Positions 9,508 through 39,293 of a stretch of DNA of 39,293 nt are shown piece after piece (position 1 is the first letter of the stretch; every line of letters begins with the position of its first letter). The position numbers and the translations under genes are program-made. The DNA is from an uncultured Gammaproteobacteria bacterium (lineage in GTDB: Bacteria > Patescibacteriota > Microgenomatia > UBA12405), in NCBI GenBank assembly GCA_964463925.1, contig CAYXDV010000004.1, forward strand, positions 79,080 through 118,372, written 5' to 3'. The notes beneath the pieces are model-generated. The model had not been told where the DNA came from. It saw only the letters and a program-made list of their open reading frames with translations, and searched no databases.

Positions 9508-9536
9508 ATTGGCCATTTCTTCTATAAACTAAATTT

Positions 9537-12094: not shown

Positions 12095-12111
12095 TTATCA
12101 AAAATTAACTA

Positions 12112-12141
12112 TTGTCCAACATTGGCTGCTTAGTTTATAAT
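12112..12141 (+). promoter_or_regulatory. Sigma70-type promoter for the T-box/glyQS transcript
   Basis: TTGTCC (12112-12117), 18 nt, TATAAT (12136-12141), ending 7 nt before Stem I of the T-box. Confidence 0.65.
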
Positions 12142-12148
12142 TCTATGC

Positions 12149-12248
12149 TACGGCTATGACAGAGTTGGCATCCTCGAGCTGTAAAAACAAGTGGTTTATT
12201 GCTTAAGCAGTAAACAATTAGGGTGGAACCATCCGATATTCGGATCCC
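12149..12248 (+). ncRNA. Glycine T-box riboswitch leader (minimal architecture)
   Basis: Stem I: TACGGC/GCTGTA, K-turn-like TATGA/GA, GAG/CTC closing a loop containing GGC-A. Stem III: GTTTATTGC-TTAA-GCAGTAAAC. T-box motif AATTAGGGTGGAACC. Antiterminator: GGG-TGGAACC-ATCCG-ATATT-CGGAT-CCC. Directly upstream of glyQS. Confidence 0.85.
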
Positions 12249-12274
12249 TTTATTAATAATTATTAATAAAAATT

Positions 12275-13591
12275 ATGGTTCAAAATCAAGAAGACAAAGT
12301 TTCCAAAATAGTTTCGCTGTGCAAACGCAGAGGTATCATTTTTCAAAATTCTGAAATATATGGGGGAGTTCAAGGATTTTACGATTATGGTCCCATAGGC
12401 TCTCTGATGAAATACAACTGGAAGAATTTATGGTGGAAGGATAATGTTATAAAGCGCAGAGATGTTGTTGGAATCGACGGGACAATTATTACTCACCCAA
12501 AAGTTTGGGAAGCCTCAGGACATGTAAAGAACTTTGGCGATGAGCTAGTAGAATGCAAATCCTGTCATCAACGTTTCCGACCTGATTTAATAAATTTTGC
12601 CAAAGAATGCCCAGAATGTGGAGGCGAATTCACAAATCCAAAGAAATTCAATATTTTATTTCACACCGAAATAGGTGTAATTGAGGGTGAAAAAATTCCT
12701 GCCTATCTTCGCGGAGAAGCTTGCCAAACTATATATCTAGATTTCAAAAATATCATTGATTCTTGCCGTGTCAAAATACCTTTTGGCATTGCCCAGATCG
12801 GCAAAGCCTTTCGTAATGAAATTACACCAAAAAACTTTCTTTATCGTACTCGCGAATTTGAACAATGGGACGTGCAATATTTTGTTCACCCGTCAGAAAT
12901 GGATAAGTGGTACGAATATTGGAAAGAAAATCGAATGTCTTGGTACCAAAATTTATTTAACGATAAAAATAGTCTACGTTTTAGACAGCATGCTCAAGAT
13001 GAACTTGCATTTTATGCCCAAAAGGCGTTTGATATTGAATATAATGCCCCTTGGGGTTGGGCAGAAATGGAGGGTATTCATTGGCGCTCGGACTACGATT
13101 TATCCCAGCATTCAAAATTTAGTGGTCAGGATCTAGCTTACAAAGACCCATTAACTCAAGAAAAATACCTACCATGGATTGTGGAAACTTCAGGCGGAGT
13201 TGATAGGGGGTTCTTTTTTCTATTGCTAGATGCATATCGGGAAGATAAATTGGAAAACGGAGAAATTCGTACTTGGTTGCAAATAAATCCAAAGCTTTCC
13301 GCCTACAAATTAGCAATCTTCCCACTAGCCAGCAATAAGCCAGAGCTAATAAGCAAATCAGAAGAAATTTATAGTCAGCTAGCTGATAAATATTCAGTAG
13401 ATTATGATGATAGCAGTAGTATAGGGAAAAAATATCGACGACAAGACGAAATAGGGACGCCCTGGTGTTTGGTAGTTGATTATCAAACTCTTGAAGACAA
13501 CACTGTTTCCATCCGTGATCGCGACACCATGGAACAAATCCGTATAAAAGCTGGAGAGGTTGACGGTTGGTTATCCAATAAGCTAAAGTAA
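12275..13591 (+). CDS. glyQS: Glycine--tRNA ligase, alpha2 (eukaryote/archaea-like) class II type
   Basis: LCKRRG..FQNSEIYGG, YLRGEACQ, GKAFRNEITP, RTREFEQ, ELAFYA, ETSGGVDR, and anticodon-binding IGKKYRRQDEIGTP. Confidence 0.95.
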   Translation: MVQNQEDKVSKIVSLCKRRGIIFQNSEIYGGVQGFYDYGPIGSLMKYNWKNLWWKDNVIKRRDVVGIDGTIITHPKVWEASGHVKNFGDELVECKSCHQRFRPDLINFAKECPECGGEFTNPKKFNILFHTEIGVIEGEKIPAYLRGEACQTIYLDFKNIIDSCRVKIPFGIAQIGKAFRNEITPKNFLYRTREFEQWDVQYFVHPSEMDKWYEYWKENRMSWYQNLFNDKNSLRFRQHAQDELAFYAQKAFDIEYNAPWGWAEMEGIHWRSDYDLSQHSKFSGQDLAYKDPLTQEKYLPWIVETSGGVDRGFFFLLLDAYREDKLENGEIRTWLQINPKLSAYKLAIFPLASNKPELISKSEEIYSQLADKYSVDYDDSSSIGKKYRRQDEIGTPWCLVVDYQTLEDNTVSIRDRDTMEQIRIKAGEVDGWLSNKLK

Positions 13592-13594
13592 GCA

Positions 13595-14098
13595 ATGAAA
13601 AAAATATATTTGATTCTACTGGCTTCTGGCTTATTTCTCACTGCATGTTCTGCAACTGGTTCAAAATCAAGTCCAACTGTAACTCCAACACCAATTCAAA
13701 AAAAGAATAAGCTAACTGAAATCATCTTTGACAACCCACCGCAAATTTCCTTAACTCCCAGGACTGATGGTCATGAGTTAAAATTGAAAATTGCCCAAAT
13801 TCCAGCATCTATTACAAAGCTTGAATATGAACTTTTGTACAAAGCCATAGACGGCAAAACTGAAATAGAAAAAGGCCTAGGAGATACTGTCAACAATCCT
13901 GGCCTCTCCATGGAGCGTGATCTGCTTTTGGGAACATCAAGCTGTACAAATGGCTGTAAGTACAAATATGATGACGGCGTAAGTAGTGGAAGTATAAAAA
14001 TTACCTATCTTACAAATAATAATGAAGTAAATGTTTATGAATCTTCGTGGACTCTAAGTAAAGTGGGGGGCAAATTCTCGGTCAAGCTTGAAAAATAA
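13595..14098 (+). CDS. Putative lipoprotein
   Basis: MKK + hydrophobic stretch + LTAC lipobox, followed by an SPTVTPTP linker. Confidence 0.7.
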   Translation: MKKIYLILLASGLFLTACSATGSKSSPTVTPTPIQKKNKLTEIIFDNPPQISLTPRTDGHELKLKIAQIPASITKLEYELLYKAIDGKTEIEKGLGDTVNNPGLSMERDLLLGTSSCTNGCKYKYDDGVSSGSIKITYLTNNNEVNVYESSWTLSKVGGKFSVKLEK

Positions 14099-14100
14099 AC

Positions 14101-14967
14101 ATGCCCACAGCCCACTATCCCGTTTTAAAAGAAGAAGTAGTTAGTTTACTAAGTTCTCGCTTACCCGCTGGAACAACGATAATTGACGGAACACTGGGAA
14201 ATGCTGGTCACAGTATCGCCCTAGCACAGGAAAAATACCACATCATCGGTCTTGACCGAAACCTACAAAGCCTAAATCAGGCAAAATTAAATATTGCAAA
14301 TTACAAAGATTACATCTCTGTTTATCAAGACAACTTCACAAATTTTCCAAACTATTTTCCACACAATCCAAAAGCAATTCTTTTAGACTTAGGACTATCT
14401 ATTTCTCAATTAAAAGACTATGATCTTGGCTTATCTTTTAGTGACGACAGTCTAGACATGCGCCTTGATACAAAAACAAAAACCACAGCAAAAGACCTTG
14501 TAAACGATTTGCCTGTATTGGAGCTTTCAAATATTATAGGGAAGTTGTCTCAGGAAAAGCTTAGCCAACCAATTGCCAAAAATATTGTAAAATTCAGAAC
14601 AAACCAGCCGATAATAAGCGCCAAGCAGCTTGCACAAATAGTCAGTGACACATACGAGGAATATCACCAAATCAGCAAATTGCATCCTGCCACAAAAACT
14701 TTTTTAGCCTTAAAAATAATCGTAAATCAAGAAATAGAAAATCTAAAATTATTTCTCCAGAATACATTGTCAGCACCTAATGGCTTTTTAGTAGCCATTA
14801 TTACATTTCATTCAACCGAAGACCGCATAGTAAAAAACTTTTTAAGAGAAAACAAAAGTCAACTTCAGATAGAAAAAGCAATTTTTCCAAACAAAAATGA
14901 AATTGCACAAAATCCTCCAAGTAGATCAGCAATTCTTAGAAGTTATATAATCAAATCATGTCTTTAA
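14101..14967 (+). CDS. rsmH: 16S rRNA m4C1402 methyltransferase RsmH (MraW)
   Basis: HYPVL, DGTLGNAGHS, LLDLGLS, LDMRLD, HPATKTF, ITFHSTEDRIVK, NPPSRSAILR. Confidence 0.93.
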   Translation: MPTAHYPVLKEEVVSLLSSRLPAGTTIIDGTLGNAGHSIALAQEKYHIIGLDRNLQSLNQAKLNIANYKDYISVYQDNFTNFPNYFPHNPKAILLDLGLSISQLKDYDLGLSFSDDSLDMRLDTKTKTTAKDLVNDLPVLELSNIIGKLSQEKLSQPIAKNIVKFRTNQPIISAKQLAQIVSDTYEEYHQISKLHPATKTFLALKIIVNQEIENLKLFLQNTLSAPNGFLVAIITFHSTEDRIVKNFLRENKSQLQIEKAIFPNKNEIAQNPPSRSAILRSYIIKSCL

Positions 14968-16292
14968 AACAAAAAATTCCAATCCTACAAAAATTAACCA
15001 ACATTTTTATACACCTACCAAGAAGTATTTTTTGGAATATTAAATATGGTTTTCCAAGCCGTGACATGACCTTAATAGGAATTACCGGAACCGACGGAAA
15101 AACAACTACCACCATACTTACACACCAACTGCTTAAGAATTATGGACTAAAAGTTGGACTGATAAGTACTTTAGGGGCCAAGATTGAAGATGAATTCATT
15201 ACAACAGGACTACACACTACTTCTCCCAATCCTGCGACAATTCAACGCCTGCTGTACCAAATGAAAAAAGCAGGCCTAACACATGTCGTTCTAGAAGTAA
15301 CTTCACACGCACTAGATCAATATCGTTATTGGGGCTGCAAATTTCAAGTTGGAGTCTTTACCAATCTTGCCCAAGAACATTTAGACTATCACAAAAATAT
15401 GGACAAGTATTTGCTTGCAAAATCAAAACTATTGAAACAATGCACCTTTCCTATTGCCAATTTTGATAGTCCATTTTTTTCTAAGTTAAAAAAGATAGTG
15501 GGCAGAAAAATCTTGACATTTGGATTCAATCAGGGAGCAGATATTTTAGCAAGTGATTTAGTCTTGAATTCCAACAAATTAACTTTCAATGTAAAGAACC
15601 AAACTTTTTATACTAATAGTCCTTTTGCCTATCAGGCATACAACATACTCGCAGCACTAGCAATTTCAAATTATTTGAACATACCAGAACCAATTTTGCA
15701 GCAAACAATTGAGCATTTTCCAGAAACCAAGGGAAGGCGTGAAGAGATCTCAAATGATTTAGGCATACATTGTATTGTCGATTTTGCCCACACTCCACAA
15801 GCTCTCGAGAATACGCTCAATAGCCTTAGGATAACTAATCCAGATAACAAAATTATCACAGTGTTTGGGGCCACCGGAGGTCGTGATCCGGGAAAACGTC
15901 CCAAAATGGGTCAAATAGTTTCAGAGTTGTCTAACATCACCATAATTACTTCAGATGATACTCGAAACGAAAAAATAGAAAACATAGCATCACAAATTGA
16001 GTCAGGTATCGGAAAGGAAGTTCAGAAAATATCTTTTAGTCAAAAAATACCAAATAAAAAAGAGTTGCAAAATGCTAAAAATTACCTAAAAAACGGACAT
16101 ATATACACTTTTATACCAAATAGACAAGATGCAATTACTACGGCAATTTTGTTGGCACAAAAAGGAGATGTGGTAATTGCCTGTGGCAAAGGACACGAAC
16201 AAACAATACTCTTGGGTGAAACAGAATACCCCTGGTCGGAATCAGAAGCAATTCGCACTGGTTTGAATATCCGTCAAAATAGTCTAAAATAG
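14958..16292 (+). CDS. murE: Mur ligase, MurE type (UDP-MurNAc-dipeptide:amino acid ligase)
   Basis: GITGTDGKTTT, HTTSP, LEVTSH, HLDYH, VDFAHTP, GGRD..KRPKMG, GKGHE. Confidence 0.9.
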   Translation: MSLKQKIPILQKLTNIFIHLPRSIFWNIKYGFPSRDMTLIGITGTDGKTTTTILTHQLLKNYGLKVGLISTLGAKIEDEFITTGLHTTSPNPATIQRLLYQMKKAGLTHVVLEVTSHALDQYRYWGCKFQVGVFTNLAQEHLDYHKNMDKYLLAKSKLLKQCTFPIANFDSPFFSKLKKIVGRKILTFGFNQGADILASDLVLNSNKLTFNVKNQTFYTNSPFAYQAYNILAALAISNYLNIPEPILQQTIEHFPETKGRREEISNDLGIHCIVDFAHTPQALENTLNSLRITNPDNKIITVFGATGGRDPGKRPKMGQIVSELSNITIITSDDTRNEKIENIASQIESGIGKEVQKISFSQKIPNKKELQNAKNYLKNGHIYTFIPNRQDAITTAILLAQKGDVVIACGKGHEQTILLGETEYPWSESEAIRTGLNIRQNSLK

Positions 16293-16296
16293 GTCT

Positions 16297-17331
16297 ATGA
16301 TCCATTTGTATCTCGGACTTCTTTTGGTGTCATTTTTGCTAACTAGTATTTTTGTGATCCCATTCATTAACTTACTTTATAAACTAAAATTCCAGCGCCA
16401 AGCACAAACCACGCTTGATTTTCAAAATAAACGTACACCCATTTTTGATAAATTTCATGCCAAAAAGGCAGGAACCCCAGTTGGCGGTGGATTACTAATA
16501 ATCATCTCTGTATGCGTCCTATTTTTGCTTATTTTTCCGCTTCTAGGCGTAGGTAAAATTTTTGTTAGCTCCAACTACAAAATAGGCCAAGAACTTTTAG
16601 TAATTTTCTACACTTTTCTTAGTTTTGGCTTGATTGGTTTATATGATGATGTTTTAAAGTTCTTCGGTTTTCAGAAAACTGGGTTTTTTGGTCTTAGAAT
16701 GCGCCATAAATTAGTACTGCAGTTAGCAGCTGCTTTCGTTACATCCCTTGGGTTGTATCGAATTTTAGGAATTGATTTTGTATATATACCTTTTTTGGGT
16801 CCCCTGAATTTAGGCCCAATATATTTACCTTTTGCCACACTCCTAATTGTTACTTTTGCTAACTTCTTCAATATTACTGATGGGCTCGACGGTTTATCAT
16901 GTGGTCTTCTAACTATTTCACTTTTTGCTTTTTGGGTTTTGGCGGGCAATTCCCTAGACACGCCAATCTCGATTTTCTTATCTCTTTGGATTGGAGCTAT
17001 TGTTGCTTTTTTATATTTTAATGTATCGCCAGCTCGTATCTGGTTGGGAGATGTAGGCGCCCTATCTTTTGGAAGTACTTTTGCAGTTATTGCCCTTCTT
17101 CTTGGCAAGGTTGTTCCGCTTCTTATTGTTGGAATACCATTTATCGTAGAAGGTGGTAGTAGTTTTATTCAAATTCTAAGTAAAAAGTACCTAAAACGGA
17201 AGTTATTCCCAGCCGCACCAATTCATTTAACAATGCAGCATCTTGGTTGGGAAGAATCAAAAATTGTGTTCAGGGCCTGGTTGGTAGCGATAATATTATC
17301 AATTTTTGCTCTATGGTTGGGCCTAAATTAA
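16297..17331 (+). CDS. mraY: Phospho-N-acetylmuramoyl-pentapeptide transferase
   Basis: KAGTPVGGG, GLYDD, NITDGLDGL, FNVSPARIWLGDVG, APIH. Confidence 0.93.
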   Translation: MIHLYLGLLLVSFLLTSIFVIPFINLLYKLKFQRQAQTTLDFQNKRTPIFDKFHAKKAGTPVGGGLLIIISVCVLFLLIFPLLGVGKIFVSSNYKIGQELLVIFYTFLSFGLIGLYDDVLKFFGFQKTGFFGLRMRHKLVLQLAAAFVTSLGLYRILGIDFVYIPFLGPLNLGPIYLPFATLLIVTFANFFNITDGLDGLSCGLLTISLFAFWVLAGNSLDTPISIFLSLWIGAIVAFLYFNVSPARIWLGDVGALSFGSTFAVIALLLGKVVPLLIVGIPFIVEGGSSFIQILSKKYLKRKLFPAAPIHLTMQHLGWEESKIVFRAWLVAIILSIFALWLGLN

Positions 17332-27959: not shown

Positions 27960-28004
27960 GTAATCAGTATATATGCAACTGTTATAATTAGCTACCGGCA
28001 ATCA

Positions 28005-28077
28005 GGTTGTTTAGCTCAGTTGGTAGAGCATTCCGTTCACATCGGAAAGGTCGCAGGTCCGAGTCCTGCAACAACCA
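28005..28077 (+). tRNA. tRNA-Val (anticodon CAC)
   Basis: Acceptor GGTTGTT/AACAACC, D arm GCTC/GAGC, anticodon arm TTCCG-TTCACAT-CGGAA, T arm GCAGG-TCCGAGT-CCTGC, discriminator A. CCA is not encoded. Extended -10 TGTTATAAT at 27980-27988. Confidence 0.95.
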
Positions 28078-29704
28078 CTTCCAACATTTTTACTCTTTTC
28101 CACAAAGATGCAAAATCCCCACTTTTGTATAAGTTATCAATCTCTCTACCCCAATTGCTTGCCAATTCAATTTCTTGTTTTTCATACATATCTAATTTGT
28201 GGTGCAACAACCAGGTATATATCTTTTTAACATGTGCTTTTCCAACAACTAAATATGCTTTGGCAGCCGATTGACTAATCGGTAAAACATCTGGAGTTAA
28301 ATGATATAGATCTTCCAAAATTGACCAGGATACTGCTTTCTCTTTCGATTTATTACTAAATTCATAAGTCCATCTTAAAGTTTGCAACCAATTTTTCTTT
28401 TCGGCAGCTTTGTAGGCTTGATCGAGATTGTTATCCCCTAAATATGTTTTATGAAGATTTTTTAACTTTAGTTTAATGATTTCCCATAGTTGATTATTAC
28501 TTTCCTGATCCAAAACTAAACTATTTCCAATAACCCGATAACTCAAATTTATAACTTGCCCCTTTGATATTGTTCCCTCATATTTTTCCCACACATTTGG
28601 CGAATCATGATAGCTTGCAAAGACATGAAAAGCACCATTTCCAGTTCCGACTACCTTAAGTTTACATTTATCATCATTTTTCAAAATAGGGAAACTAACA
28701 AAGCCAAATTTGTCCGATGTCTTTGTCAAATATCCAGTACAGTCAACTTCCAAATACGCGGGTGAACCAATAAAAAATACTGCTCCATTTTCTGTAGGAT
28801 CTTCATTTTGTTTCAAAATAGCAAGTGGTCTCAATTGCAATTCATTCATAATGTTATTGACAGACAAATCTACCATTTTTCGATGTGTAGCTTGAAGTTG
28901 GATAAAACTATCACCACTTATTTTTGCACTTGTAGTTAGAATTGTTCCATCACCGTCAGCATATTCATATCCATCAAAGCTTCCATCTCCCCACTTGTTC
29001 AAAACCTTATCAACCAAATCTTGTTCTGATAGTAAAACCCTTGATTTTGTCTCAGCTCCAGAAGCAACCCTTGCAGACAAAAATGGAAATATATTGCTAA
29101 CTTCTAAATTTCTGCCAATTATGTAATCATTCTTGTAAGTCAAAGATGCAAGCGGAAGCTGTTGGCCATTTTTCTTCACAAAATCAAACGTTGGCGATAT
29201 ATCCTTTAAAACTGGCATAACCGTTCTGACTGTTTCTATGTCGCTACTATACTTAATTCTCCAGGTTTGAAACAGCAAATTTGTCATCAAACTTTGTAAA
29301 CTAAATTTATCGTAGTCAATTACTTTACCACCTGCCCACGCTTCATAAGCACTGACAACTCCAGAATGTGGACTGCCAAGGGTGATTAATTTGAGCAGTC
29401 GTGGATCCATATGGTATTGAACCCAATCTCTAGCAACCAAACCTCCAAGAGAATGGCCAATCAAAACAAATTTATCCTCAGGTCCCGTTTTCTGTACAAT
29501 AAAATTATTCAAATTATTCTGAATCTCTAAAATGTTCTTGCGCCAATCATAATTCCAAACAAATAAGTCAACCCCTTCTCTGTAACCATTATTAACAAAA
29601 GCCTCAACTAAGTTATCATAATCATGAACAAAAGGTGTCATTTCCCAATCTTTAGGCAAAACGTTTAGATTATATATCATAGCCTCGCTATTCCAACTTC
29701 CACC
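28037..29704 (-). pseudogene. Alpha/beta-hydrolase (lipase/PGAP1-like), 3' part, interrupted by the integrated element
   Basis: GHSLGG nucleophile elbow, ITLGSPHSG, DGDGTI, late His. The frame continues upstream of Met 29680 as G-G-S-W-N-S-E-A-M up to the junction. The missing N-terminal part is at 39239-39293. Confidence 0.85.
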
Positions 29705-29726
29705 AAAACCTTGGAACTAGTTACAA
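29689..29726. mobile_element. Left attachment junction of the serine-recombinase element
   Basis: Host half (TA)TTCCAACTTCCA, core CC at 29703-29704, element half AAAACC + TTGGAACTAGTTACAA (29711-29726). Confidence 0.85.
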
Positions 29727-30974
29727 CAAAATTGTGAAGTATACTATTACCCTAAAATCAGGTAATAATAAATTTTTAATCAATAAAAAAACTAGTTGTT
29801 TTAATTTGCAAGACAAACAAAAATTTTCAATTTACAATGAGATTGCAAAAAAAACCTACCAAACATTATGAAGAGATAAACCCGTAAGTTAGATAAAATC
29901 TAATATTAAAACCAAATTCAAAATATATTGCAAAATAAATTAATTTTAGGCAACAATTTATCCTATAACACTTGCCAAACAGCATTTAAGTCTGTTAAAC
30001 TAAAAATAGATAAGGATATTATTCCAAAGATTGAGATTTAGATCGGGCAAAGATATTTACCCAACTACGAGGAGTTTATGAGTAGTATAAAGCCGTGCAA
30101 AACGGCATAGCTGAAAGGATTATCAAATTTAATCTCAATCGACTAGGAATAAGTTAAACTGGGCTGTGCTTTCCATTAAGCCATCAAATAGTGGACTATA
30201 TCTCAAGGAAAGACCCGATGAAATTTAAGGAATATCTGAAGTAGAAGCAATATTCTGTCATCCAAAGAGGCTAAAAAAGCTTAGAGAATGACCCTTAGTG
30301 TTGTAGGAAGGGACTCTCTCCGCCACTGGCGTGATGTAACAACACCGTTAAGAAACCCAATGGGGGCAGGGGGGCCGTATCTAATCTTAGGAAAGTTGTA
30401 ATTGGTTGGATGTTGAGCGAATGAAATGAGCGAGACGGCATAAGAGTAGTTTGAGATTGGTAGAGATTAGCGCCCATTTCCTGGCTAGGAAAGAGGGTTG
30501 GGGTGACAGATCGAATAAATCCCCTCAGGGATTTAATTACTATATCTATTATTTCTTGCTTTCTTTTGTTTCTTTTCTTTACCGCATTTTTACCAGGCTC
30601 TGTCATTTGAGAACTCTGTCGAAGTCAGCTACAGTGAGGATTATTGATATCCGTAGGTCGGACAATGTGACTCCCCATAAAAGTTAATGTCGCCATTAAA
30701 ATTGAAAAAATTTTAAGGGGGTCAAAAAATCTTTCAAAAGATTAAAAATTAATTAAAAAATGGTTAAAAATATTCACAAAATATCAGATTTATTAATAAT
30801 AATTGCCTTGTTTCTCATGATATTCAGACTTTTAAGCTGCTAATTTGTGCAACCTTGAAACTGAATATTTGTTGGAAAGTTAGATTTTAACTGCGCCGTT
30901 AAAATTAGGTGGTGAGTGTATCTTTGCTCGGAAAATAGTTATTGGTAGACGCGTTTCTGAAATTAGAGGGGGTA

Positions 30975-31949
30975 TTAATAGTTTTTGTATTCCTTTTCAA
31001 TTTCAACTCGAATCTCTTCAATCATTTTCTTGTCAGAATCACTGGTAATAAAGTTTGAAGGTATAGTTTCAGAACTGGTATTAATGATGAATTTGGCATA
31101 GCCTTCATCATTTTTGCCTATTTCTTGATAATCCCAAAAATCTTCAATGGCCAAGGAAATTATTTCTTCAAGTGTGGTGTCTTTATCTTTTAGGATTTTT
31201 CTGCGATAAGTATCTCGTTCTGAGATGTTTTTCAGATAATAAGATGAAGATGATAATCCATCTCTCTGATATTTTCCTTCCTTCCAAGTAAGGATGATGG
31301 TATGGCCTGGAGCATTGGCATGACAAAACCATCCTCTTCCACTTTCCCATGAGTCATCTGTCACCATAATGTTATCTGTTCCTCCATTGGTTGATTCGGA
31401 TACCCAGACATTGGCATATTTATACCCTTCCACTTTTGGCAGATCGGGAAACATATCTTTCACTTCGCCGTTAACAATTTGAAAAACTGATTGTCCATGA
31501 CAGTTCCAGCAGTTGCCGTAATTGGCATGTTGGATAATTAATTCAGGGATTCCATCCTTATTGATGTCTTTAATTTTTACACTGTCAAACATTTCATCTT
31601 CCATGGAAAAGATTATTTTCTCCTGATCTTTGTCGTCGACTTTTGTTAAGAGAAAAACTCTTGGCAAATTATCATCATCACTGGGACACTCAAAAGTCAT
31701 CCAGTTATATTTTTCATTTTTCCAAACTAATCGTCCTCCGTCATCTTGTTTGACAGAAATTCGTCGATCATTTTGTTGGCAAAGCTTAATTGTCTCAGCA
31801 GTGCAGTCAAACGCTGATTGTGAAGGCTCTGGTGAAGCCGCAGGAATATTATTATCGGTCTGTTGTCTGTTAAGTTTGAAGAAAATCAGGAATACAGAAA
31901 CAACCAAGATTGAAAGAATTATAAGATTGTTTTTGTTTAGCTTTTTCAT
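30975..31949 (-). CDS. Membrane-anchored extracellular protein with a Dx[DN]xDG Ca-binding-like motif
   Basis: N-terminal TM helix, low-complexity linker, DINKDGIPELII, several Cys including CWNCH. Confidence 0.75.
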   Translation of the reverse strand: MKKLNKNNLIILSILVVSVFLIFFKLNRQQTDNNIPAASPEPSQSAFDCTAETIKLCQQNDRRISVKQDDGGRLVWKNEKYNWMTFECPSDDDNLPRVFLLTKVDDKDQEKIIFSMEDEMFDSVKIKDINKDGIPELIIQHANYGNCWNCHGQSVFQIVNGEVKDMFPDLPKVEGYKYANVWVSESTNGGTDNIMVTDDSWESGRGWFCHANAPGHTIILTWKEGKYQRDGLSSSSYYLKNISERDTYRRKILKDKDTTLEEIISLAIEDFWDYQEIGKNDEGYAKFIINTSSETIPSNFITSDSDKKMIEEIRVEIEKEYKNY

Positions 31950-32251
31950 TGGAATTTTGGACTGCCCAAAATATTTGATGTTGGTCTATTTTTATTATCC
32001 CCCTCAAAATAGTTTTTGCCAAAGTAGATAACAAACATGTAGAGAATGTAAAATCCGATTGATCTGGCAATGTAGGAAGAAGGGTTTGGAATTTTAATGT
32101 CACATGTTTGGGTGCAGGGATCAGAATAGCAAAATTTATCGGACTGGCAAGTTCTGAAACTGACAAGACTAGACACTAAAGAAATAATGATGATAAAAAT
32201 GAAAGCTCCTGATTGCTTGTTCATTTTTTGATGATTCCTATCTTCTCCCAA
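31946..32251 (-). CDS. Small hypothetical membrane protein (2 TM, Cys-rich loop)
   Basis: Two hydrophobic helices flank CQSDKFCYSDPCTQTC. ATGA overlap with the downstream gene. True start may be the second Met. Confidence 0.55.
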   Translation of the reverse strand: MGEDRNHQKMNKQSGAFIFIIIISLVSSLVSFRTCQSDKFCYSDPCTQTCDIKIPNPSSYIARSIGFYILYMFVIYFGKNYFEGDNKNRPTSNILGSPKFQ

Positions 32252-32673
32252 ATGTTTTTGTAACTGACTGGTTTTCCATATTTATTGCCTTCATCAACAC
32301 TTATTGAAAAGGCAAGGTAAAGAAAATAAATGAAACTCATTAATCCGCCAATACCTTTATCGATTGATGACAAGACAAACAAAACAAAAGCGATAATAAT
32401 TGGGACTGCCCAAGACTGATTAAGGTCGTGGTGTCTTCGAATTAAAATTGAAATTGATAAAAATCCTGAGACAACAAACGGAGCAACAATAAAAAACAAA
32501 GAAAGTATCCCTGAAGTGGAAAGCATAAGACCAAAAATAGTATCAATCAACGATACAATCGCCCATAAAACAAAAATCGGTATCCAAATAATAATCGGAG
32601 TGAGAATAATGGCAATAACAAAGTCTTTTCTTGAAAGCCTATCTTTGAAGTTTATTTTCATAGTTTTGACCAT
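32221..32673 (-). CDS. DUF805-family membrane protein
   Basis: FKDRLSRKDF N-terminus, ISILIRRHHDLNQS, C-terminal GNKYG. Confidence 0.75.
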   Translation of the reverse strand: MVKTMKINFKDRLSRKDFVIAIILTPIIIWIPIFVLWAIVSLIDTIFGLMLSTSGILSLFFIVAPFVVSGFLSISILIRRHHDLNQSWAVPIIIAFVLFVLSSIDKGIGGLMSFIYFLYLAFSISVDEGNKYGKPVSYKNIWEKIGIIKK

Positions 32674-32724
32674 CTTGAGTTTGGTTTTAATTTGCCTCTC
32701 ATGTGGTTATTTTTAACTAAATTA

Positions 32725-32743
32725 TACACTATCGTGTAGTGTA
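32725..32743. promoter_or_regulatory. Palindromic operator between divergent DUF805 and XRE genes
   Basis: TACACTA-TCGTG-TAGTGTA, a perfect 7-bp inverted repeat, overlapping a minus-strand TATAAT (32726-32721). Confidence 0.6.
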
Positions 32744-32774
32744 GGAAGCCAAATAAAATCATAAGATTGGGTTA

Positions 32775-32987
32775 ATGTTATCGAAAGAAAGCTTATCTAA
32801 AAAATTTGGGAACAGATTGAGAGAGGAAATGGGATCCATGAGTCAAGAAGCTTTGGCGGTGAAGTCGGGTTTACATGTCAACTATATCGGCAGACTTGAG
32901 CGCGGCGAAGCTTGTCCTTCGATTTATGCCGTCTACAAAATTGCCTTGGCTTTGAAAATTAAACCGAGTGAATTATTGGAATTATAA
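32775..32987 (+). CDS. XRE-family HTH regulator (R-M controller C-protein-like)
   Basis: [28 protein letters not shown]...KIALAL pattern, 70 aa. Confidence 0.88.
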
Positions 32988-32997
32988 TTTTTGTTCC

Positions 32998-34608
32998 TTA
33001 CAGATACGCCAGATTCCAACATTTGTTTAATGCCTCAAAAATCTTTTGCATTTCTTTTTCAAATTCATCTTTAGATATTGATTGTGCAACTTCACGGGCA
33101 TAAATTATTTTTCCATTCTGAATTTTATCCAGCTCTTTGACTTCGTCTGCTGTTTTCTTCCATCCTTTTGGGTAATATTCCTCAATTGAGTCAGTTGGTA
33201 ATTCAAAAAATTGCCCTTGAGAAGTAAGATGACTATAATCGGTCAAAAATTTTTGTTTATCTTTCTCCTTTTCTGGAGATGGCCTATCAATCAGTATTAT
33301 TAATCTATCCTTATATATTGGCGACATCTTTCCTATTGGACAATAAACTTTATTTATCGCATCCATTGATTTGCTTTGTTTTTTAATATCTCCCTCTGCA
33401 AAAATAACCTGAATTTGCGGTTTATCAGAATAAAACCTTTTTATGATATTCACAATAAATTGTTCATCACTTTTACCTTCAACTATCAAAAAATTTCTTG
33501 GCAACAGCAAATCTGAAGGACTTCCTCCTAACAGATCATATATAACCGACATTTTATCTATTCCAGAAACATCATCAATATTTGTTATTCCACCAATCTT
33601 TTCTACTTTGAATATTTTTTGGCAATCATTGTCGTCCGTTACCAAGACTGAAGAATGAGTGTTGACAAAGACCTGATCTGTTTCACAAATATCCAAAAGC
33701 GCTTTTTTAAGTGCTCTTTGGGCTGATGGATGCAGATGCAGTTCTGCTTCGTCAATTAAGAATAAAAATGAACCTCCGCCACTCTGCTCTTTTCGGTAAT
33801 CAGCAAAAGCCTGAATAATCGACAACATTATTGCCCTTTGCATTCCATCGCCTTTTTCTTCAGCTTTTGTTTCTATTCCATCGTTAACTGTAGTGTCAAA
33901 ACTCTTAAGCAAATCGCCGAACTCTGGTGGGTTAACCCCAAACTTAACACTAGTTCCATCTGGAAACTGTTTTTGGAGATAGATTTCTACTTTTGATCCA
34001 AGTTTATTCAGCTCCTTTCTTACCTCAGAATTTTCATCATCAAATAGTTTTGAAAATTTATCTCTGAAATCTGAATATTCTGATGAGTTTTCAATAATTG
34101 TAGTCAAAACTCCTGATAGCATTATCCCAATTGGATTTCTGTCTTTATATTTTGAAACATCGTCCAGTCTTATTTTAGTATTGATATATTCAAGCTTAGG
34201 TAAAAATTCATTAATTGCAGTGTCTAGTCCTGATGGATTTCCTTTATCCACCTCACCAACAAAATATTTTCTCTTGTGATCGTTAGCACTACTCTTGATG
34301 ACTGAAAACGAAGTTGACTCTCCTAGTAAAGTTTTTATTTTTGTTTTATTGGCATCAGTCGTTAATTTCTCGATGTCTGATTCTAAAACCTCATCGAAAA
34401 ACAATTCAACTTCAATTATGTTTGAAGCTATTTTGTTAAAATGCTCATCGGCAGATGATGATTTGGCGTTATAAAACCATTCAATTGCTTCAAAAAAATT
34501 TGTTTTACCATGGTTATTTTGCCCAACAAAAACATTAAATCTGGCGGTTTCTATTGTCTTGTTTTGAATTGATCGATAATTTTGAACCCTTACTTTTGAT
34601 ATTTTCAT
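32998..34608 (-). CDS. OLD-family ATP-dependent endonuclease (ABC ATPase + TOPRIM)
   Basis: MKISKVRVQNYRSI, Walker A GQNNHGKT, ABC signature KGDGMQR, Walker B LIDEAELHLHP, H-loop NTHS, TOPRIM LIVEGKSDE and ILID. Start placed at ATG 34608. Confidence 0.88.
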   Translation of the reverse strand: MKISKVRVQNYRSIQNKTIETARFNVFVGQNNHGKTNFFEAIEWFYNAKSSSADEHFNKIASNIIEVELFFDEVLESDIEKLTTDANKTKIKTLLGESTSFSVIKSSANDHKRKYFVGEVDKGNPSGLDTAINEFLPKLEYINTKIRLDDVSKYKDRNPIGIMLSGVLTTIIENSSEYSDFRDKFSKLFDDENSEVRKELNKLGSKVEIYLQKQFPDGTSVKFGVNPPEFGDLLKSFDTTVNDGIETKAEEKGDGMQRAIMLSIIQAFADYRKEQSGGGSFLFLIDEAELHLHPSAQRALKKALLDICETDQVFVNTHSSVLVTDDNDCQKIFKVEKIGGITNIDDVSGIDKMSVIYDLLGGSPSDLLLPRNFLIVEGKSDEQFIVNIIKRFYSDKPQIQVIFAEGDIKKQSKSMDAINKVYCPIGKMSPIYKDRLIILIDRPSPEKEKDKQKFLTDYSHLTSQGQFFELPTDSIEEYYPKGWKKTADEVKELDKIQNGKIIYAREVAQSISKDEFEKEMQKIFEALNKCWNLAYL

Positions 34609-34672
34609 TGTTAAAAATAAGAAAATATATCTCAATTATATCCGTAAAATCAACTGAAATAAGGCATCAAAA

Positions 34673-35818
34673 TTATTCCGTTTCTTCTGTTTCTTCCGCA
34701 AATGAGTCAAATGATCCAATTCTTGCAAAATCTACACTGTATTTTCCTTCACTGTGCTTGTAAATAACAACACTATCTATGCCTAAGTTTTCAAGCTTTT
34801 CATAAGTTAGCAACTCACCATCTTTAAGGCTCATCACATTTCTCAATATCCATTCACCAAGTCGAGAGTTTGGGTCTGACATTAAAGCTTTTCGGTTATC
34901 CTGACAAAGTTTTGCGCTCATTGTTGATCCGTCAGGCAGTTCCAAATCAAATTTGGTTTCTCTGCCTGGAAAGAAATCGGGGTATGATTTATGAACCCAT
35001 GAGGGAATTTTAAGATAGACTTCGCTCATATTCCTTGGCCTCCCTCCGGCATTCCACTGATTTAATCCGCTTTTTTCAGGAACGAATCTTTCACCTGTTT
35101 TTTTATCAATAGAGAACAGTGGTAAAAAGACATGAGGAGCCTCTCTAATTGGGGCAAAGACTATATCTCTTACGGACTCGTTAAACATTTTGTCTAGCGC
35201 TTCAAAAGGATCCGTTATTATTTTCACAGGAAAGTCCATTAAAAAACCGTCTGCAACAAACTGCTCAAAAAGGGTACTTTTAGATATGTTGAATCCGTAA
35301 TTATTGATGCCATCATCAAATCTGATGGTATTTCTTGCGCATATCACATTTTTGATTTGTTCAATCCTGACCAAATCCATTTTTGTTTCAAACACATGAA
35401 TTTTGCCTTTTGATCTTGTGACACAGTGATAAATCATATCTTCAAGTCCATAGGCACGGCGAGCAAACTCAATTCTCTGATTTCTGAGTTCGGCTACTTT
35501 TATAATCTTTTGATCTGAATCAAGGCCCTTAAAAGCATCAAGTTCCCGATTAAATTCGGCGACCTTCTCAAAACTTTTTCCATTTTTATGAAGAAATGTT
35601 TTTATTCCGACACCGACTTTGTCTTTTGAGGCATCAATGGATGTATCATGGCGGGATAAATTTTCTGCCTTAAATGATTTACAGAACAGATTTTCAACAA
35701 GCCTATACCCTAAATATGGCTCTGGGCTATCAGAAAACAGGTTCGACAAAGACCCAGCGGCTTTGAGCATGCGCTCATAATATTCTTTCTTTTTTTCTTC
35801 CTGTTTATTAATAAACAT
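34673..35818 (-). CDS. Type II restriction endonuclease, NgoFVII-family-like
   Basis: Immediately downstream of a C5 methyltransferase (2-nt gap). SIDASKDKVGVGIKTF is a PD-(D/E)xK-like motif. The family assignment comes from my recollection of the SLSNLFSDS..PYL.YR..EN.FC pattern. Confidence 0.7.
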   Translation of the reverse strand: MFINKQEEKKKEYYERMLKAAGSLSNLFSDSPEPYLGYRLVENLFCKSFKAENLSRHDTSIDASKDKVGVGIKTFLHKNGKSFEKVAEFNRELDAFKGLDSDQKIIKVAELRNQRIEFARRAYGLEDMIYHCVTRSKGKIHVFETKMDLVRIEQIKNVICARNTIRFDDGINNYGFNISKSTLFEQFVADGFLMDFPVKIITDPFEALDKMFNESVRDIVFAPIREAPHVFLPLFSIDKKTGERFVPEKSGLNQWNAGGRPRNMSEVYLKIPSWVHKSYPDFFPGRETKFDLELPDGSTMSAKLCQDNRKALMSDPNSRLGEWILRNVMSLKDGELLTYEKLENLGIDSVVIYKHSEGKYSVDFARIGSFDSFAEETEETE

Positions 35819-35820
35819 AG

Positions 35821-36801
35821 TTAATCCATCGCCTTTTTAATATTTTCGGCAATTCTCTTGATTACCGGAACAACTACCGAGTTTCCCATTTGAGTATAAA
35901 GCTTTGATAAAGCTATGCCACTTGGCAGTTTAATGTCATCAAACCCCATAATTCTGGCACATTCAAGAGGTGTGAGTTTTCTTATTCCATGATTATCTTT
36001 TATAATCGGCACATTATGCCCCCCTTGACCCATATTTGCCGTTAAAGTAGGACAAACGCCTTTTTTATTCTCGCGCAAATAAACTCTTCTCCATTGATAT
36101 ACAGATCCTTTTTCAATATCCTGGCTTTTCAGCTTTTCAAAAAGCGGTTTGTTGTTGTAATAAAATTTTTCATCAACTTTGTTTTCAAGAAGGTCAGTGA
36201 CATTTTTTGTCAAATTTATCGGCTTTGGAAATTCAAACCTATCTGCAATTTTTTTGTCCTTAAAACCCACAATATAAATTCTCTCCCTATTTTGGGGAAT
36301 ATTGCCATATTCCATGCTGTTAAGGACTTTGTACTTGATATGATAGCCAAGGTTTTCAAGAGTCTTTTTGATTACATTAAAGGTTTTGCCGTCATCATGA
36401 TTTTCCAGATTTTTTACATTTTCAAGCAAAAATCCTTTTGGACTAGTTTCTCTTAATATTCTTTCTATCTCAAAAAAAAGGTTTCCTCTTCCTTTGGGAT
36501 CATTGAATCCATGTCTGTACCCTGCAATCGAAAAAGCCTGGCAGGGAAATCCTGAAAGTAAAAAATCATATTCGGGAATTTCACTGGATTTTACTTCCCT
36601 GATATCTTTGACTGTAAGCTTCACACCTTTAGAATTCAGATCGTATGTATACTTGCATGCAGGCTCAAAATCGTTGGCAAAAACAGCCTCAAAAGCTCCA
36701 GTTGATTCAAATCCTTTTCTTATTCCGCCAATTCCGGCGAAAAGATCAATTGTTCTTATTTTCTTTTTTTGCATATTTCTCTTTGTAGGCTTGAAACGCA
36801 T
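35821..36801 (-). CDS. dcm: DNA (cytosine-5)-methyltransferase
   Basis: Motif I DLFAGIGG, IV GFPCQ, VI ENVKNL, VIII PQNRERIYIVG, IX RKLTPLEC, X GNSV. True start may be ATG 36774. Confidence 0.95.
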   Translation of the reverse strand: MRFKPTKRNMQKKKIRTIDLFAGIGGIRKGFESTGAFEAVFANDFEPACKYTYDLNSKGVKLTVKDIREVKSSEIPEYDFLLSGFPCQAFSIAGYRHGFNDPKGRGNLFFEIERILRETSPKGFLLENVKNLENHDDGKTFNVIKKTLENLGYHIKYKVLNSMEYGNIPQNRERIYIVGFKDKKIADRFEFPKPINLTKNVTDLLENKVDEKFYYNNKPLFEKLKSQDIEKGSVYQWRRVYLRENKKGVCPTLTANMGQGGHNVPIIKDNHGIRKLTPLECARIMGFDDIKLPSGIALSKLYTQMGNSVVVPVIKRIAENIKKAMD

Positions 36802-37169
36802 GTCTCAAGATTGTTTCTGATGTCATGTTCCCAGAAACGAAGAACCTTAATATTATTATTACACAGCTTTTGGTTTATTTCGGCATCTCTTTTAACATTT
36901 CCCTTTATCTTTTTATTCCAATAATCATTTCCGGATTTTGGCTTTTTGAAACATTTTGGGCATTTATGCCAAAAACATCCATCAATAAATACAGCTATTC
37001 TGGCTTTAGGGAAGAAAACATCAGGTTTTCCAATAATTTTAGAAGTTAAACGGTATCCTCTTATGCAATTTTTCCAAATAGCTTTTCTAAAAGCGATTTC
37101 CGGCTTGGTATTTTTGGATTTTATCTGGGACATGCAATGGCTTCTCTGGCCCTTAGTCATATTGTCCAT
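36756..37169 (-). CDS. vsr: Very-short-patch repair endonuclease
   Basis: RSHCMSQIKSKNTKPE, GKPD, AVFIDGCFWH.C..C, YWNKKI..NVKRD, LRFWEH. Confidence 0.93.
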   Translation of the reverse strand: MDNMTKGQRSHCMSQIKSKNTKPEIAFRKAIWKNCIRGYRLTSKIIGKPDVFFPKARIAVFIDGCFWHKCPKCFKKPKSGNDYWNKKIKGNVKRDAEINQKLCNNNIKVLRFWEHDIRNNLETCVSSLQREICKKRK

Positions 37170-37175
37170 AATTAA

Positions 37176-37388
37176 TTATGGCTCATTTTTTTTGTTTTGG
37201 AAGGTATCATTTCGTGTTTTATTCGGTTGCAATAAATTATTTTTGCTTTCGCTCGGTCTGGTTATTAAATCAAAAAGCTTCAAAAAACTCTCTGCCTCGA
37301 TTCTAGCTTTTTCAAAACTAATTTCTCCACATTTTTCCCTGTAGATTTCTTGAAACTCTTTAACTGCTTCATCTGGTAGAAATGACAT
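37176..37388 (-). CDS. Small helical hypothetical protein
   Basis: 70 aa amphipathic (DEAVKEFQEIYREKCGEISFEKARIEAESFLKLFDLI). TATAAT lies 5 nt upstream of the ATG. Confidence 0.6.
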   Translation of the reverse strand: MSFLPDEAVKEFQEIYREKCGEISFEKARIEAESFLKLFDLITRPSESKNNLLQPNKTRNDTFQNKKNEP

Positions 37389-37404
37389 ACCTTATTATAA
37401 GGTA
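37388..37404. promoter_or_regulatory. Palindrome/divergent promoter between two small ORFs
   Basis: TACCTTAT-T-ATAAGGTA fills most of the 25-nt gap between the divergent start codons. Confidence 0.55.
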
Positions 37405-37413
37405 GGATTAATT

Positions 37414-37581
37414 ATGGATGTTAAGAAAGCTCGAGAAATACTTGGAAAGGAAAGCAATAAATACGATGACGGCCAAATTCTTGAATTCATCAATACGGCA
37501 AAACTACTCTCAAATATTGCAATTGAAGAAATTCAAAAGATTATAAAGGAGGAATCAAAATGGCTTCTGAAGAAAAAATAA
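37414..37581 (+). CDS. Small helical hypothetical protein (55 aa, not in the ORF track)
   Basis: MDVKKAREILGKESNKYDDGQILEFINTAKLLSNIAIEEIQKIIKEESKWLLKKK. TAGGAT lies 5 nt upstream. Located just upstream of the recombinase. Confidence 0.65.
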   Translation: MDVKKAREILGKESNKYDDGQILEFINTAKLLSNIAIEEIQKIIKEESKWLLKKK

Positions 37582-37664
37582 CAGTTTTGAACTAGCTTGG
37601 AATAAATAACTCATTTATTAAAACATTATAACTCAAGGATAGTAACCAAGCGTTATAATAATCT

Positions 37665-39257
37665 ATGGCTACAACAAAACAAGCAGCTGCTTATCTCCGC
37701 GTTAGTACAGACGGACAAGATACTCGGTCACAAAGAAGCAAAATTGAAGAATATGCACAAGCCAATAACTACATTGTAGAAAAATGGTTTGTTGACGAGG
37801 CACTTTCTGGAACACTAGACGATAGGCCAGCTTTACTAGAACTTAAGGAATGGGTCCCAAATAATACAGGCAAGTCAATCCTTATGGTCGGTATCGATAG
37901 ATTGGCTCGAGACTTTACTATTTATGCCGATTTTTCAAAATTATTTCTCGATCATCAAGTTGATGCCGTATATCTTAATTGTCCAAAAATAGGGGAGCCG
38001 AGCATTGATACTTTACTTCAAAACATCCTTGCAGCCTTCGCCGCATATGAAAAAGATGTTATAAGAGACCGACTAAACCGGGGAAAACTATTCAAAATTA
38101 AAAACGGAATAATATCTGCAGGAGGTCCATCATTATTTGGCTACAAATTCCGAACTATTATCCATTCCACAGGTAAAAAAGACAAATTTTACGAAATAAA
38201 TGAACCAGAAGCAGAAATAGTCAGAATAATTTTTAACATGTTATTGTCAGGCAGATACAAAACACAAACCATCGGAAGAGAGTTGACGCGCATTAAAACA
38301 CTAAATAGGTCAGGAACCTGTAGGTGGCCATCAACTAGTATAAGGAGCCTGTTAACTAATACCACTTATATGGGGGAATATCGATATGGAAAGACAAAAA
38401 TGTCAGGAACAGGAAAAAACAGAAAAGAAATACCAAGAGCAATAGAAGAACAAATTAAGGTTAAGGTTCCGGCTATTATCAACCCCAAAGATTTTGAAAA
38501 AGCACAAGTCATTCTTGCTAAACTAGCCAGAGGTGATGGTGGTAGAACTAGTAAAAAACACTCCTATCTGCTTTCTGGATTGATAAAATGTGGCAAATGT
38601 ACTCATTGTTATTCGGGTTACAAAAGAGATTCAAAGAAAATAAAAGATAAATGGTTTTATTATCGATGCAACTCAATAAATAAGTACAACGCCGAAGGAA
38701 AACATGTATCTTGTGGCAATCATTCAATTGGTGGAAATATGGCTGAATCAGCAATTTGGAATGTACTAGTTGAGATATTAACCGACCCTAAAAAAATCCA
38801 TGAAAAACCAGAAAAAAAGAAGAATGAAGAGAGACGCATGGAATTAGCTGGAGAATATGTGGCTGTCAACAAACAGTTAAATGGTTTTGATGAGGAAGAA
38901 AACAGGATAATGAAAGCCTTTGGTAAAGGCCTTTTTACAGAGGAACAAGTGATTAGATATAAAAAGGAACTAAATGATGAAATGATTCTGCTTAACCAGA
39001 AAAGAAAAGAACTAATAGATCAGATGTACATTTACTCAATGGAATTTGCACAGTTAGAACTTGATCCTGTTCCAACAAAAGAAGAACTGCAAAACTATTC
39101 ATACGAAAACAAAGGTTATATGATTCAAAAATACATTTCAGAAATACGAGTCCTTCCCACCAATCCTCAGCAATTAGAGATCACTTTTAACCTGCCAGTT
39201 AAACCAAAGACTGTTATTGTAACAAGTTCCAACTCGCCCCTAAACCAGGAAGAATAA
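37665..39257 (+). CDS. Large serine recombinase (integrase)
   Basis: YLRVS (catalytic Ser14), DRLAR, recombinase domain, zinc ribbon LLSGLIKCGKC...YYRC...SC, coiled coil. The ORF runs across the right junction. Confidence 0.95.
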   Translation: MATTKQAAAYLRVSTDGQDTRSQRSKIEEYAQANNYIVEKWFVDEALSGTLDDRPALLELKEWVPNNTGKSILMVGIDRLARDFTIYADFSKLFLDHQVDAVYLNCPKIGEPSIDTLLQNILAAFAAYEKDVIRDRLNRGKLFKIKNGIISAGGPSLFGYKFRTIIHSTGKKDKFYEINEPEAEIVRIIFNMLLSGRYKTQTIGRELTRIKTLNRSGTCRWPSTSIRSLLTNTTYMGEYRYGKTKMSGTGKNRKEIPRAIEEQIKVKVPAIINPKDFEKAQVILAKLARGDGGRTSKKHSYLLSGLIKCGKCTHCYSGYKRDSKKIKDKWFYYRCNSINKYNAEGKHVSCGNHSIGGNMAESAIWNVLVEILTDPKKIHEKPEKKKNEERRMELAGEYVAVNKQLNGFDEEENRIMKAFGKGLFTEEQVIRYKKELNDEMILLNQKRKELIDQMYIYSMEFAQLELDPVPTKEELQNYSYENKGYMIQKYISEIRVLPTNPQQLEITFNLPVKPKTVIVTSSNSPLNQEE

Positions 39258-39260
39258 CTA
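39217..39260. mobile_element. Right attachment junction
   Basis: Element arm TTGTAACAAGTTCCAA (39217-39232) + CTCGCC, core CC at 39239-39240, then host TAAACCAGGAAGAATAAC. Confidence 0.85.
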
Positions 39261-39293
39261 TTTTGGGTTTAATCGGTACTGCGGTAGGAGATG
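39239..39293 (-). pseudogene. 5' part of the interrupted alpha/beta-hydrolase (continues beyond the window)
   Basis: Minus strand reads SPTAVPIKPKIVILPGLG, a Pro/Thr linker followed by the PG.G oxyanion-region motif that the 28037-29704 fragment lacks. Confidence 0.85.

Follow-up and report, generated by a model that had tools for sequence, protein, structure and literature searches.

A probable mobile defence island within a lipase-like hydrolase gene of Patescibacteria

This report concerns an integrated element of 9,536 bp (core counted once) at positions 29705-39240 of a 39,293-nucleotide stretch of DNA, called here the window, from an uncultured member of the Patescibacteriota (GenBank assembly GCA_964463925.1, contig CAYXDV010000004.1, positions 79,080 to 118,372). 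The last 11 kb of the window hold a minus-strand hydrolase open reading frame (ORF), followed by an unlike gene block that ends in a plus-strand gene for a large serine recombinase (LSR). The block is bounded by a left and a right attachment site (attL and attR). It is probably a small integrative defence island that is moved by its LSR and splits the hydrolase gene, with excision serving the mobility of the element rather than a switch under host control. The anatomy of the element, the position of the crossover, the existence of empty alleles, repeated use of the same site and horizontal spread can all be read directly from the sequences compared. The LSR would, from its sequence, still be active, and loss of the hydrolase would be collateral or tolerated. 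The evidence does not place the element in the class of regulated gene switches, as a sequence-only reading of the same DNA had suggested it might.

A hydrolase gene in two parts

The larger part of the gene lies to the left of the element. It occupies 28037-29704 on the minus strand (555 codons from the core to the stop) and holds the catalytic GHSLGG, GDGT and H residues, together with a beta-sandwich and a helical C-terminal domain. Its longest ATG-started ORF, 28037-29680, encodes a protein of 547 amino acids (P0001), and its Pfam matches are to LCAT (3e-10), Palm_thioest, PGAP1 and Abhydrolase_1. On the far side of the element, the last 17 codons of the 5′ part (SPTAVPIKPKIVILPGL-G) are found at 39241-39293, also on the minus strand. 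These 53 bases (39293-39241) read as SPTAVPIKPKIVILPGLG and match the linker and strand beta-1 of an intact homologue, P0002. As integrated, the 5′ fragment runs into the element and ends as PGLGASWNLLQ followed by a stop.

The sequence-only reading held that the two minus-strand halves join into a continuous alpha/beta-hydrolase frame, and this is what was found. When 39293-39241 is joined to 29704-28037, one open frame results that contains SPTAVPIKPKIVILPGLGGSWNSEAMIYNLN and KPKIVILPGLGGSWNSEAMIYNLN. P0002, a protein of 855 amino acids whose residues 300-855 are 65% identical to the 3′ part, spans the joint uninterrupted (KPKVIILPGLGGSWNSEAMIYNL; VFVKPKVIILPGLGGSWNSEAMIYNLSVLPKDWEMTPFVHDY). 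Since the joint is in frame and P0002 reads through it, the split gene is real. The P0002 locus (L002) is syntenic with the window, in the order GT2, hydrolase, S26 peptidase, ParB, L27 and L21.

A protein search with the joined hydrolase returned 250 relatives at E ≤ 0.001. The best 120 of these 250 are mostly 750-855 amino acids long, and several are named Shapirobacteria, Woesebacteria or "Patescibacteria group"; 111 of the 120 carry PG[LMF]G[AGTV]SWN, with PGLGASWN the commonest version. Among 50 aligned homologues the P-G-x-G-x-S-W motif is invariant, and GHS-x-GG, D552 (in GDGTV) and H574 are likewise invariant. With a Ser-Asp-His triad and a GxSxG elbow, the target gene is by its sequence an LCAT-like, or lipase-type, alpha/beta hydrolase. 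A search with an N-terminal fragment of the hydrolase as query gave no match.

The predicted model of P0002 (mean predicted local distance difference test score, pLDDT, 86.9) has five parts: an N-terminal signal or anchor helix, a beta-sandwich resembling the carbohydrate-binding module CBM66 (4b1m, E 1e-10), a disordered Pro/Thr linker, an alpha/beta domain matching the Bacillus licheniformis lipase BlEst2 (PDB 6wpx/6wpy), and a second beta-sandwich followed by a helical tail. The earlier proposal that the element splits a probably secreted hydrolase is supported. In the model the insertion point would lie directly after strand beta-1 of the catalytic domain, in what may, by analogy, be the oxyanion loop. 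Insertion thus parts the export and lectin portion of the protein from its catalytic portion.

At the other end of the gene, a tRNA-Val(CAC) gene on the plus strand (28005-28078) overlaps the final 14 codons of the minus-strand hydrolase ORF. The C-terminal peptide MLEVVVAGLGPATFPM is common to the window hydrolase and the 65%-identical P0002, which indicates that both ORFs run across the tRNA gene in the antisense direction.

Attachment sites, crossover point and empty alleles

The attL site (29678-29730) consists of a B′ arm at 29678-29702, the dinucleotide CC at 29703-29704 and a P arm at 29705-29730, and reads CTATTCCAACTTCCA-CC-AAAACCTTGGAACTAGTTACAA on the plus strand. The attR site (39213-39266) consists of a P′ arm at 39213-39238, CC at 39239-39240 and a B arm at 39241-39266, and reads TTGTAACAAGTTCCAACTCGCC-CC-TAAACCAGGAAG. 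From these, the attP site of the free element is reconstructed on the plus strand as TTGTAACAAGTTCCAA-CTCGCC-CC-AAAACC-TTGGAACTAGTTACAA, in which the outer arms match at 15 of 16 positions and CC stands at the exact centre, just as the sequence-only reading described. The same geometry recurs in two related elements (at loci L005 and L011, described below), each with TTGTAAC at -22..-16 from the central GG of the gene strand; by sequence, this sharing is not due to chance. The central CC is non-palindromic, and an LSR core must be non-palindromic to set orientation. The predicted circle junction is GTTCCAACTCGCCCCAAAACCTTGGAAC and the predicted empty site (attB) is CTATTCCAACTTCCACCTAAACCAGGAAG; the claim that an integrase/attB/attP set could be derived from the sequence by itself holds.

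Because attL and attR share TTCCAACTnnCnCCnAAACC, the exchange point is ambiguous when these two sites alone are considered. The sites differ at four positions, 29699, 29700, 29702 and 29705, and empty alleles were used to place the crossover among them. Public wastewater runs contain contigs with 0-1 differences to 28000-29700, and the empty site that had been predicted is present in three such runs: X1 and X4, which are metatranscriptomes (RNA), and X5 (DNA). The contigs align to the window up to 29710 and then continue with AGGAAGAATAACTATTTTGGG / AGGAAGAATAACTATTTTGGGTTTAATCGG, which corresponds to 39248 onward. The same contigs align from 39227, where they are preceded by ACGTTTAGATTATATATCATAGCCTCGCTA, corresponding to 29661-29690. 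A 151-nt contig from X1 differs from the attL side at exactly 1 position and from the attR side at 3. With a single exchange, these counts mean host sequence up to 29702 and from 39241, and therefore a crossover in the CC at 29703-29704 / 39239-39240, the central dinucleotide at which the sequence-only reading had expected it. L002 has GGTGGAAGT, of the attL type, on the 3′ side, which supports this placement. A crossover within the shared TTCCAACT or AAACC blocks was also considered and is ruled out by the 1-versus-3 mismatch count.

The recombinase

The LSR gene lies at 37665-39257 on the plus strand and encodes 530 amino acids. Its product matches Resolvase (PF00239, 2.9e-25), Recombinase (PF07508, 3.4e-17) and Zn_ribbon_recom (PF13408, 9e-10), each match covering the full length of the model; PF00239, for example, aligns to residues 7-148 over model positions 1-143 of 145, and the motif YLRVSTDGQ is present. 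The protein is an LSR by every criterion that a sequence can test, and it is intact. The nearest solved structure is the SPbeta integrase YokA/SprA (E 7e-12, alignment of residues 46-450). The best NCBIfam model is XisF (2.2e-29), with a score of 102.8 against a family cut-off of 375.

The gene itself extends across the P′ arm and the core, and its stop lies 17 nt inside host DNA. Such a crossing of the att core by the LSR ORF is seen in every member of the family; in the window, the segments concerned are 39225-39257 together with 29705-29871. The protein would differ in length between the circle form and the integrated form: 580 versus 530 amino acids in the window, 602 versus 531 in L005, and 575 versus 556 in L011. 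A swapped tail acting as a conserved domain was considered and rejected, as conservation of the circle-form tails (+50, +71 and +19 residues) ends with the attP arm. On the gene strand, the inner P′ arm (GGGGCGAGTTGGAAC) codes for GASWN, the version of the motif most often found in hosts, and in L005 attB and attP are identical over 14 bp at this arm.

One target motif in distant hosts

All LSR relatives that are at least 53% identical to the window LSR and have a readable 3′ flank adjoin a minus-strand N-terminal hydrolase fragment of 241-257 amino acids, which stops at PG[LF]G[AG]S. The expectation that homologous LSRs would sit in the same gene family is thus borne out at four other loci, all with the same motif and with LSR identities to the window of 53-89%: L005/L006 (89%), L001 (61%), L007/L008 (56%) and L009/L010 (53%; contigs L009-L012). 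One of the four (L005) carries the same defence cargo as the window, and the other three carry an unrelated phage- or plasmid-like cargo of ~15.6 kb. From these sequences, the LSR clade (at least 53% identity) appears to be dedicated to this site across divergent Patescibacteria.

The L005 element (592-11420) is 80-83% identical to that of the window at the nucleotide level, in two blocks. Apart from the OLD module, for which it has a replacement, its proteins show 87-95% identity, against only 40% for the hydrolase of its host. This disparity points to a recently moving selfish element and not to a domesticated, species-wide switch. In run X6, a window-like hydrolase is joined to an L005-like left end on a contig that spans attL of this type. 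Together, the same-site relatives and their identities show repeated and recent integration of the module at a single motif across distant hosts.

The contrasting cargo is best seen in L011, in which the L009 contig is read further. Here a whole element of 15,572 bp lies between the two hydrolase halves (960-16545), in the order N-terminal fragment, LSR, ~14 kb of mostly family-less genes, C-terminal fragment of 535 amino acids, S26 peptidase, ParB and L27. The element encodes a DnaD/O-like replication initiator (PHROGs) as well as proteins of 1049 and 405 amino acids, and these ~14 kb of genes gave no Pfam matches. The LSR alone is common to this type of element and the defence island. The L011 element may represent an undescribed small phage or plasmid type of Patescibacteria. 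Relatives of it are carried by L001 and L007. L001 (DATIKJ010000043.1) is labelled as a Spirochaetia metagenome-assembled genome, yet it shares its gene order (split hydrolase, GT2, flippase) with L007 and L009, which are Patescibacteria loci; the contig is probably mis-binned.

A more distant LSR, P0131 (38% identical), keeps the outer arm GTTGTAACAA, and its flank past the core is unlike the hydrolase motif (L016:3760-3824). Judging by this sequence, the deeper LSR clade probably targets another site. Exact look-ups with the window LSR, the methyltransferase and the hydrolase fragment gave no match, IMG/VR held no relative of the window LSR, and a scan of JGI metagenomes with the LSR recovered only a 1.2-kb fragment.

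These loci also bear on whether the junctions might be chimeric joins of a mobile element and a chromosome made during metagenome assembly. The window ends only 53 nt past attR, and its junctions are known from the assembly, not from source reads. Against this, independently assembled contigs from ENA, NCBI and Logan show this architecture too (L001 and L005-L012), both junctions stand on single contigs in L005 and L011, the X6 contig spans attL of this type, and the junctions fall exactly at the dyad-centred dinucleotide. An assembly artefact is scarcely credible.

Proposed mechanism

In the mechanism proposed, the LSR would bind an attP of ~46-50 bp with two imperfectly symmetric arms and pair it with an attB in the hydrolase gene, at the codons of the invariant P-G-[LFM]-G-[AG]-S-W-N loop. 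The secreted product of that gene is predicted to have a lectin domain similar to CBM66, joined by a Pro/Thr linker to an alpha/beta domain of lipase type. Strands would be exchanged at the central CC (GG on the gene strand). Integration would separate the export and lectin part from the catalytic part, and the secreted enzyme would be lost for as long as the element is present; precise recombination of attL with attR would restore the hydrolase frame. The motif codons would provide a target that is recognisable in hosts whose hydrolases are only 28-65% identical, and the same LSR module would serve at least two unrelated cargoes, namely an island of restriction-modification (RM), Vsr and OLD genes and a phage- or plasmid-like element of 15.6 kb.

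Selfish mobility, decay or a gene switch

The search for the circle junction, which the sequence-only reading had put forward as a check, was negative: no attP contig was found in the four runs aligned to 28000-39293, which include runs that hold related elements. No recombination directionality factor was identified among the element proteins by PADLOC, PHROG or comparison with relatives. Scans of the same proteins with Pfam, PADLOC and PHROG recognised no replication, packaging or transfer genes. In public runs, at most 6% of the words of the element were found, in only two runs (X16 and X21), and every conspecific contig found (in X1, X4 and X5) carries the empty site. The element is thus not widely maintained in its host species.

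One explanation for such observations is that the element is an immobile remnant, a decayed prophage or island unable to move, and that the hydrolase is a dead pseudogene. The lack of recognised transfer, packaging or replication genes in the 9.5-kb island and of a circle junction in the runs examined would fit this. It is nevertheless very unlikely, given an LSR that is full-length for all three domain models, att arms that are intact and symmetric, a copy with 80-83% nucleotide identity that occupies the same site where the host hydrolase is 40% identical, and a further variant joined to a window-like hydrolase in X6. In addition, the flanks of the element are identical to those of empty alleles, from which it follows that the insertion is recent.

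Another explanation is a reversible switch, in which frequent or signal-driven excision and re-integration would toggle the secreted lipase-like enzyme within a population or a cell, much like active lysogeny at comK in Listeria or SPbeta at spsM. In its favour, excision would restore a perfect frame, the LSR is intact, both gene halves are intact in every occupied locus, and empty and occupied alleles have essentially identical flanks. The same gene is moreover broken by a homopolymer frameshift in another species, as would fit a contingency locus. However, intact halves are to be expected after a recent insertion in any case and so carry no weight for a switch, the attP junction is missing from the runs examined, and no directionality factor is recognisable, the small ORFs beside the LSR being absent from the phage-like relatives. 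The element is also rare, all conspecific contigs seen are empty, and its cargo consists of selfish defence genes with no link to the hydrolase. A switch is therefore unlikely. As for the earlier interpretation, the split and restorable frame and the empty alleles are supported, and the use of the element for toggling found no support, in view of the missing attP junction and directionality factor and of the empty conspecifics.

The frameshift just mentioned was observed at L013:9106-11677 (also L014 and L015), where the orthologous hydrolase is split into ORFs of 301 and 558 amino acids with no inserted element. The reading frame shifts within an A9 run (GTTAAAAAAAAAGATT) located 20 nt upstream of the PGMGASWN codons, and 14 contigs from NCBI, ENA and Logan share exactly this change. 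Phase variation or transcriptional slippage could explain it. Short homologues of ~540-560 amino acids were considered as further LSR-split genes and rejected: the sole locus read, that of P0042, has the A9 frameshift, with no element and no scar. Four others (P0013, P0074, P0084 and P0094), on contigs of ~1.8-2.5 kb, are probably cut at contig ends.

Several points weigh against a selfish island whose excision serves only its own mobility, or against parts of the evidence for it. The 5′ part of the gene seen directly in this genome amounts to only 17 codons. The placement of the crossover rests on mismatch counts and the L002 sequence, with letters counted and not displayed. The near-identical flanks of occupied and empty alleles would fit frequent, reversible excision equally well, and the A9 frameshift hints that on/off variation of the hydrolase may itself be selected. 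A more speculative and quite improbable extension of the last point is that the hydrolase is a contingency locus of Patescibacteria, toggled at the level of the population both by LSR insertion and excision and, in other species, by poly-A slippage, and that the LSR module was co-opted by both cargoes because occupancy pays. On this view the secreted lipase-like enzyme may help the cell to obtain lipids or sugars from its host, and occupation of its gene may alter the surface of the cell or its interaction with the host, for instance so that further infection is excluded. A small, LSR-moved island that excises for its own mobility remains the probable reading.

Cargo of the element

The gene content is that of a restriction-modification system with accessory defence genes. 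Beginning upstream of the LSR, on the minus strand, are a Vsr very-short-patch repair endonuclease (36756-37169; PF03852, 2.9e-23), a C5-cytosine DNA methyltransferase (35821-36801; PF00145, 7.5e-89; TIGR00675, 1.1e-100; PADLOC MTase_II, 2.3e-115), a type II restriction endonuclease of the NgoFVII-like kind (34673-35818; PADLOC REase_II, 1.3e-103; PF20731) and an OLD-family ATPase-nuclease, which is a defence gene (32998-34635; PADLOC Old, 1.8e-61; AAA_15, 3.1e-31). An HTH_3 regulator resembling the controller proteins follows on the plus strand (32775-32987; PF01381, 7.3e-13; PADLOC Control_protein, 9.8e-14). With an adjacent methyltransferase and endonuclease and a further defence gene, the element is, by these matches, a defence island.

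The OLD position can be swapped. In L005 (3987-6740), it is occupied by a DUF4238 gene and a different AAA_15 ATPase of 624 amino acids, only 24% identical to OLD. From this comparison, the position looks like a hotspot for exchange of defence genes within islands that are otherwise 80-95% identical.

Two divergent small ORFs lie upstream of the LSR, one of 70 amino acids (37176-37388, minus strand) and one of 55 (37414-37581, plus strand). No other ORF of the element is a candidate for a regulator or excision factor. The two have no family match in Pfam, PADLOC or PHROG, and are kept in L005 (77% and 72%, respectively) and absent from the phage-like relatives. Toward the left end are a DUF805 membrane protein (32221-32673, minus strand; PF05656, 6.9e-13) and a protein of 324 amino acids with an N-terminal hydrophobic anchor or signal (30975-31949, minus strand), which is 88% identical in L005 and has no Pfam, PADLOC, PHROG or NCBIfam match.

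The left end itself (29731-30974) is a stretch of 1.25 kb without a convincing ORF. It contains a G+C-richer patch (0.44, versus about 0.33) at 30300-30599 and is conserved in L005, being 80% identical with blocks at 90-95%. A structured RNA was considered here and rejected, with no Rfam match and folding z-scores of +0.9 and +0.4 (no excess energy). The stretch could serve as an origin or in regulation, or it could encode an RNA not yet described.

Comparison with known systems

Elements that interrupt coding genes are known from several bacteria. The A118/phi10403S prophage of Listeria is a serine-integrase phage in comK, and its reversible excision has been proposed to act as a switch; excision without lysis has reportedly been shown by experiment for it, whereas no excision product was seen for the window element. 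In Staphylococcus aureus, insertion of phage L54a into the lipase gene geh abolishes the secreted lipase, a case of negative lysogenic conversion. L54a resembles the window element in interrupting a gene for a secreted lipase, and differs in having a tyrosine integrase, in being a full phage and in showing no sequence relation. XisF, the excision recombinase of the fdxN element of Anabaena, likewise belongs to a gene-interrupting element, and the window LSR is not a member of its family, as its score of 102.8 is far below 375.

By analogy, the working mode of the window element resembles two systems in particular. SPbeta, with its integrase SprA/YokA and with SprB, resides in spsM of Bacillus subtilis as an LSR element within a coding gene, and its precise excision rebuilds the gene (PMC5499854). 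The window element is like it in its LSR and in gene interruption, with a distant sequence relation. SPbeta is, however, a phage of 134 kb whose directionality factor is known and whose excision is controlled by sporulation, whereas the window element is a 9.5-kb defence island in a non-sporulating host. Similarly, skin, with SpoIVCA, splits sigK in B. subtilis and C. difficile as an LSR-bounded element whose excision restores the gene (PMC5025042). In contrast to skin, a domesticated and largely immobile element that is fixed in its species and leaves the chromosome in a terminal cell, the window element is rare, strain-specific and spreading between distant hosts. A literature search found no paper that joins Patescibacteria, prophages and serine recombinases within the collection searched.

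Significance

LSR/att sets for genome engineering were reportedly mined computationally by Durrant et al. in 2023. The set described here is like those in that attB and attP are deduced from integration boundaries, in this case in one conserved host gene. It is a candidate genetic tool, a specified integrase/attP/attB set for Patescibacteria of the Microgenomates type, a group with almost no genetic tools, and its attB occurs in many species, within a gene that is conserved and syntenic.

The main interest of the finding lies in this ready-made set, in the clade-wide targeting of an invariant motif and in the service of one module to two cargoes. With its target in the codons of an invariant motif of the catalytic loop, the integrase would stay useful across very divergent hosts, and the same LSR and att sites would form a portable recombination module, loaded with defence genes in some cases and with a phage-like genome in others. 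Should excision turn out to be frequent, no gene-interrupting switch would have been described in these episymbionts before this one, acting on an enzyme that is itself likely to act on the host.

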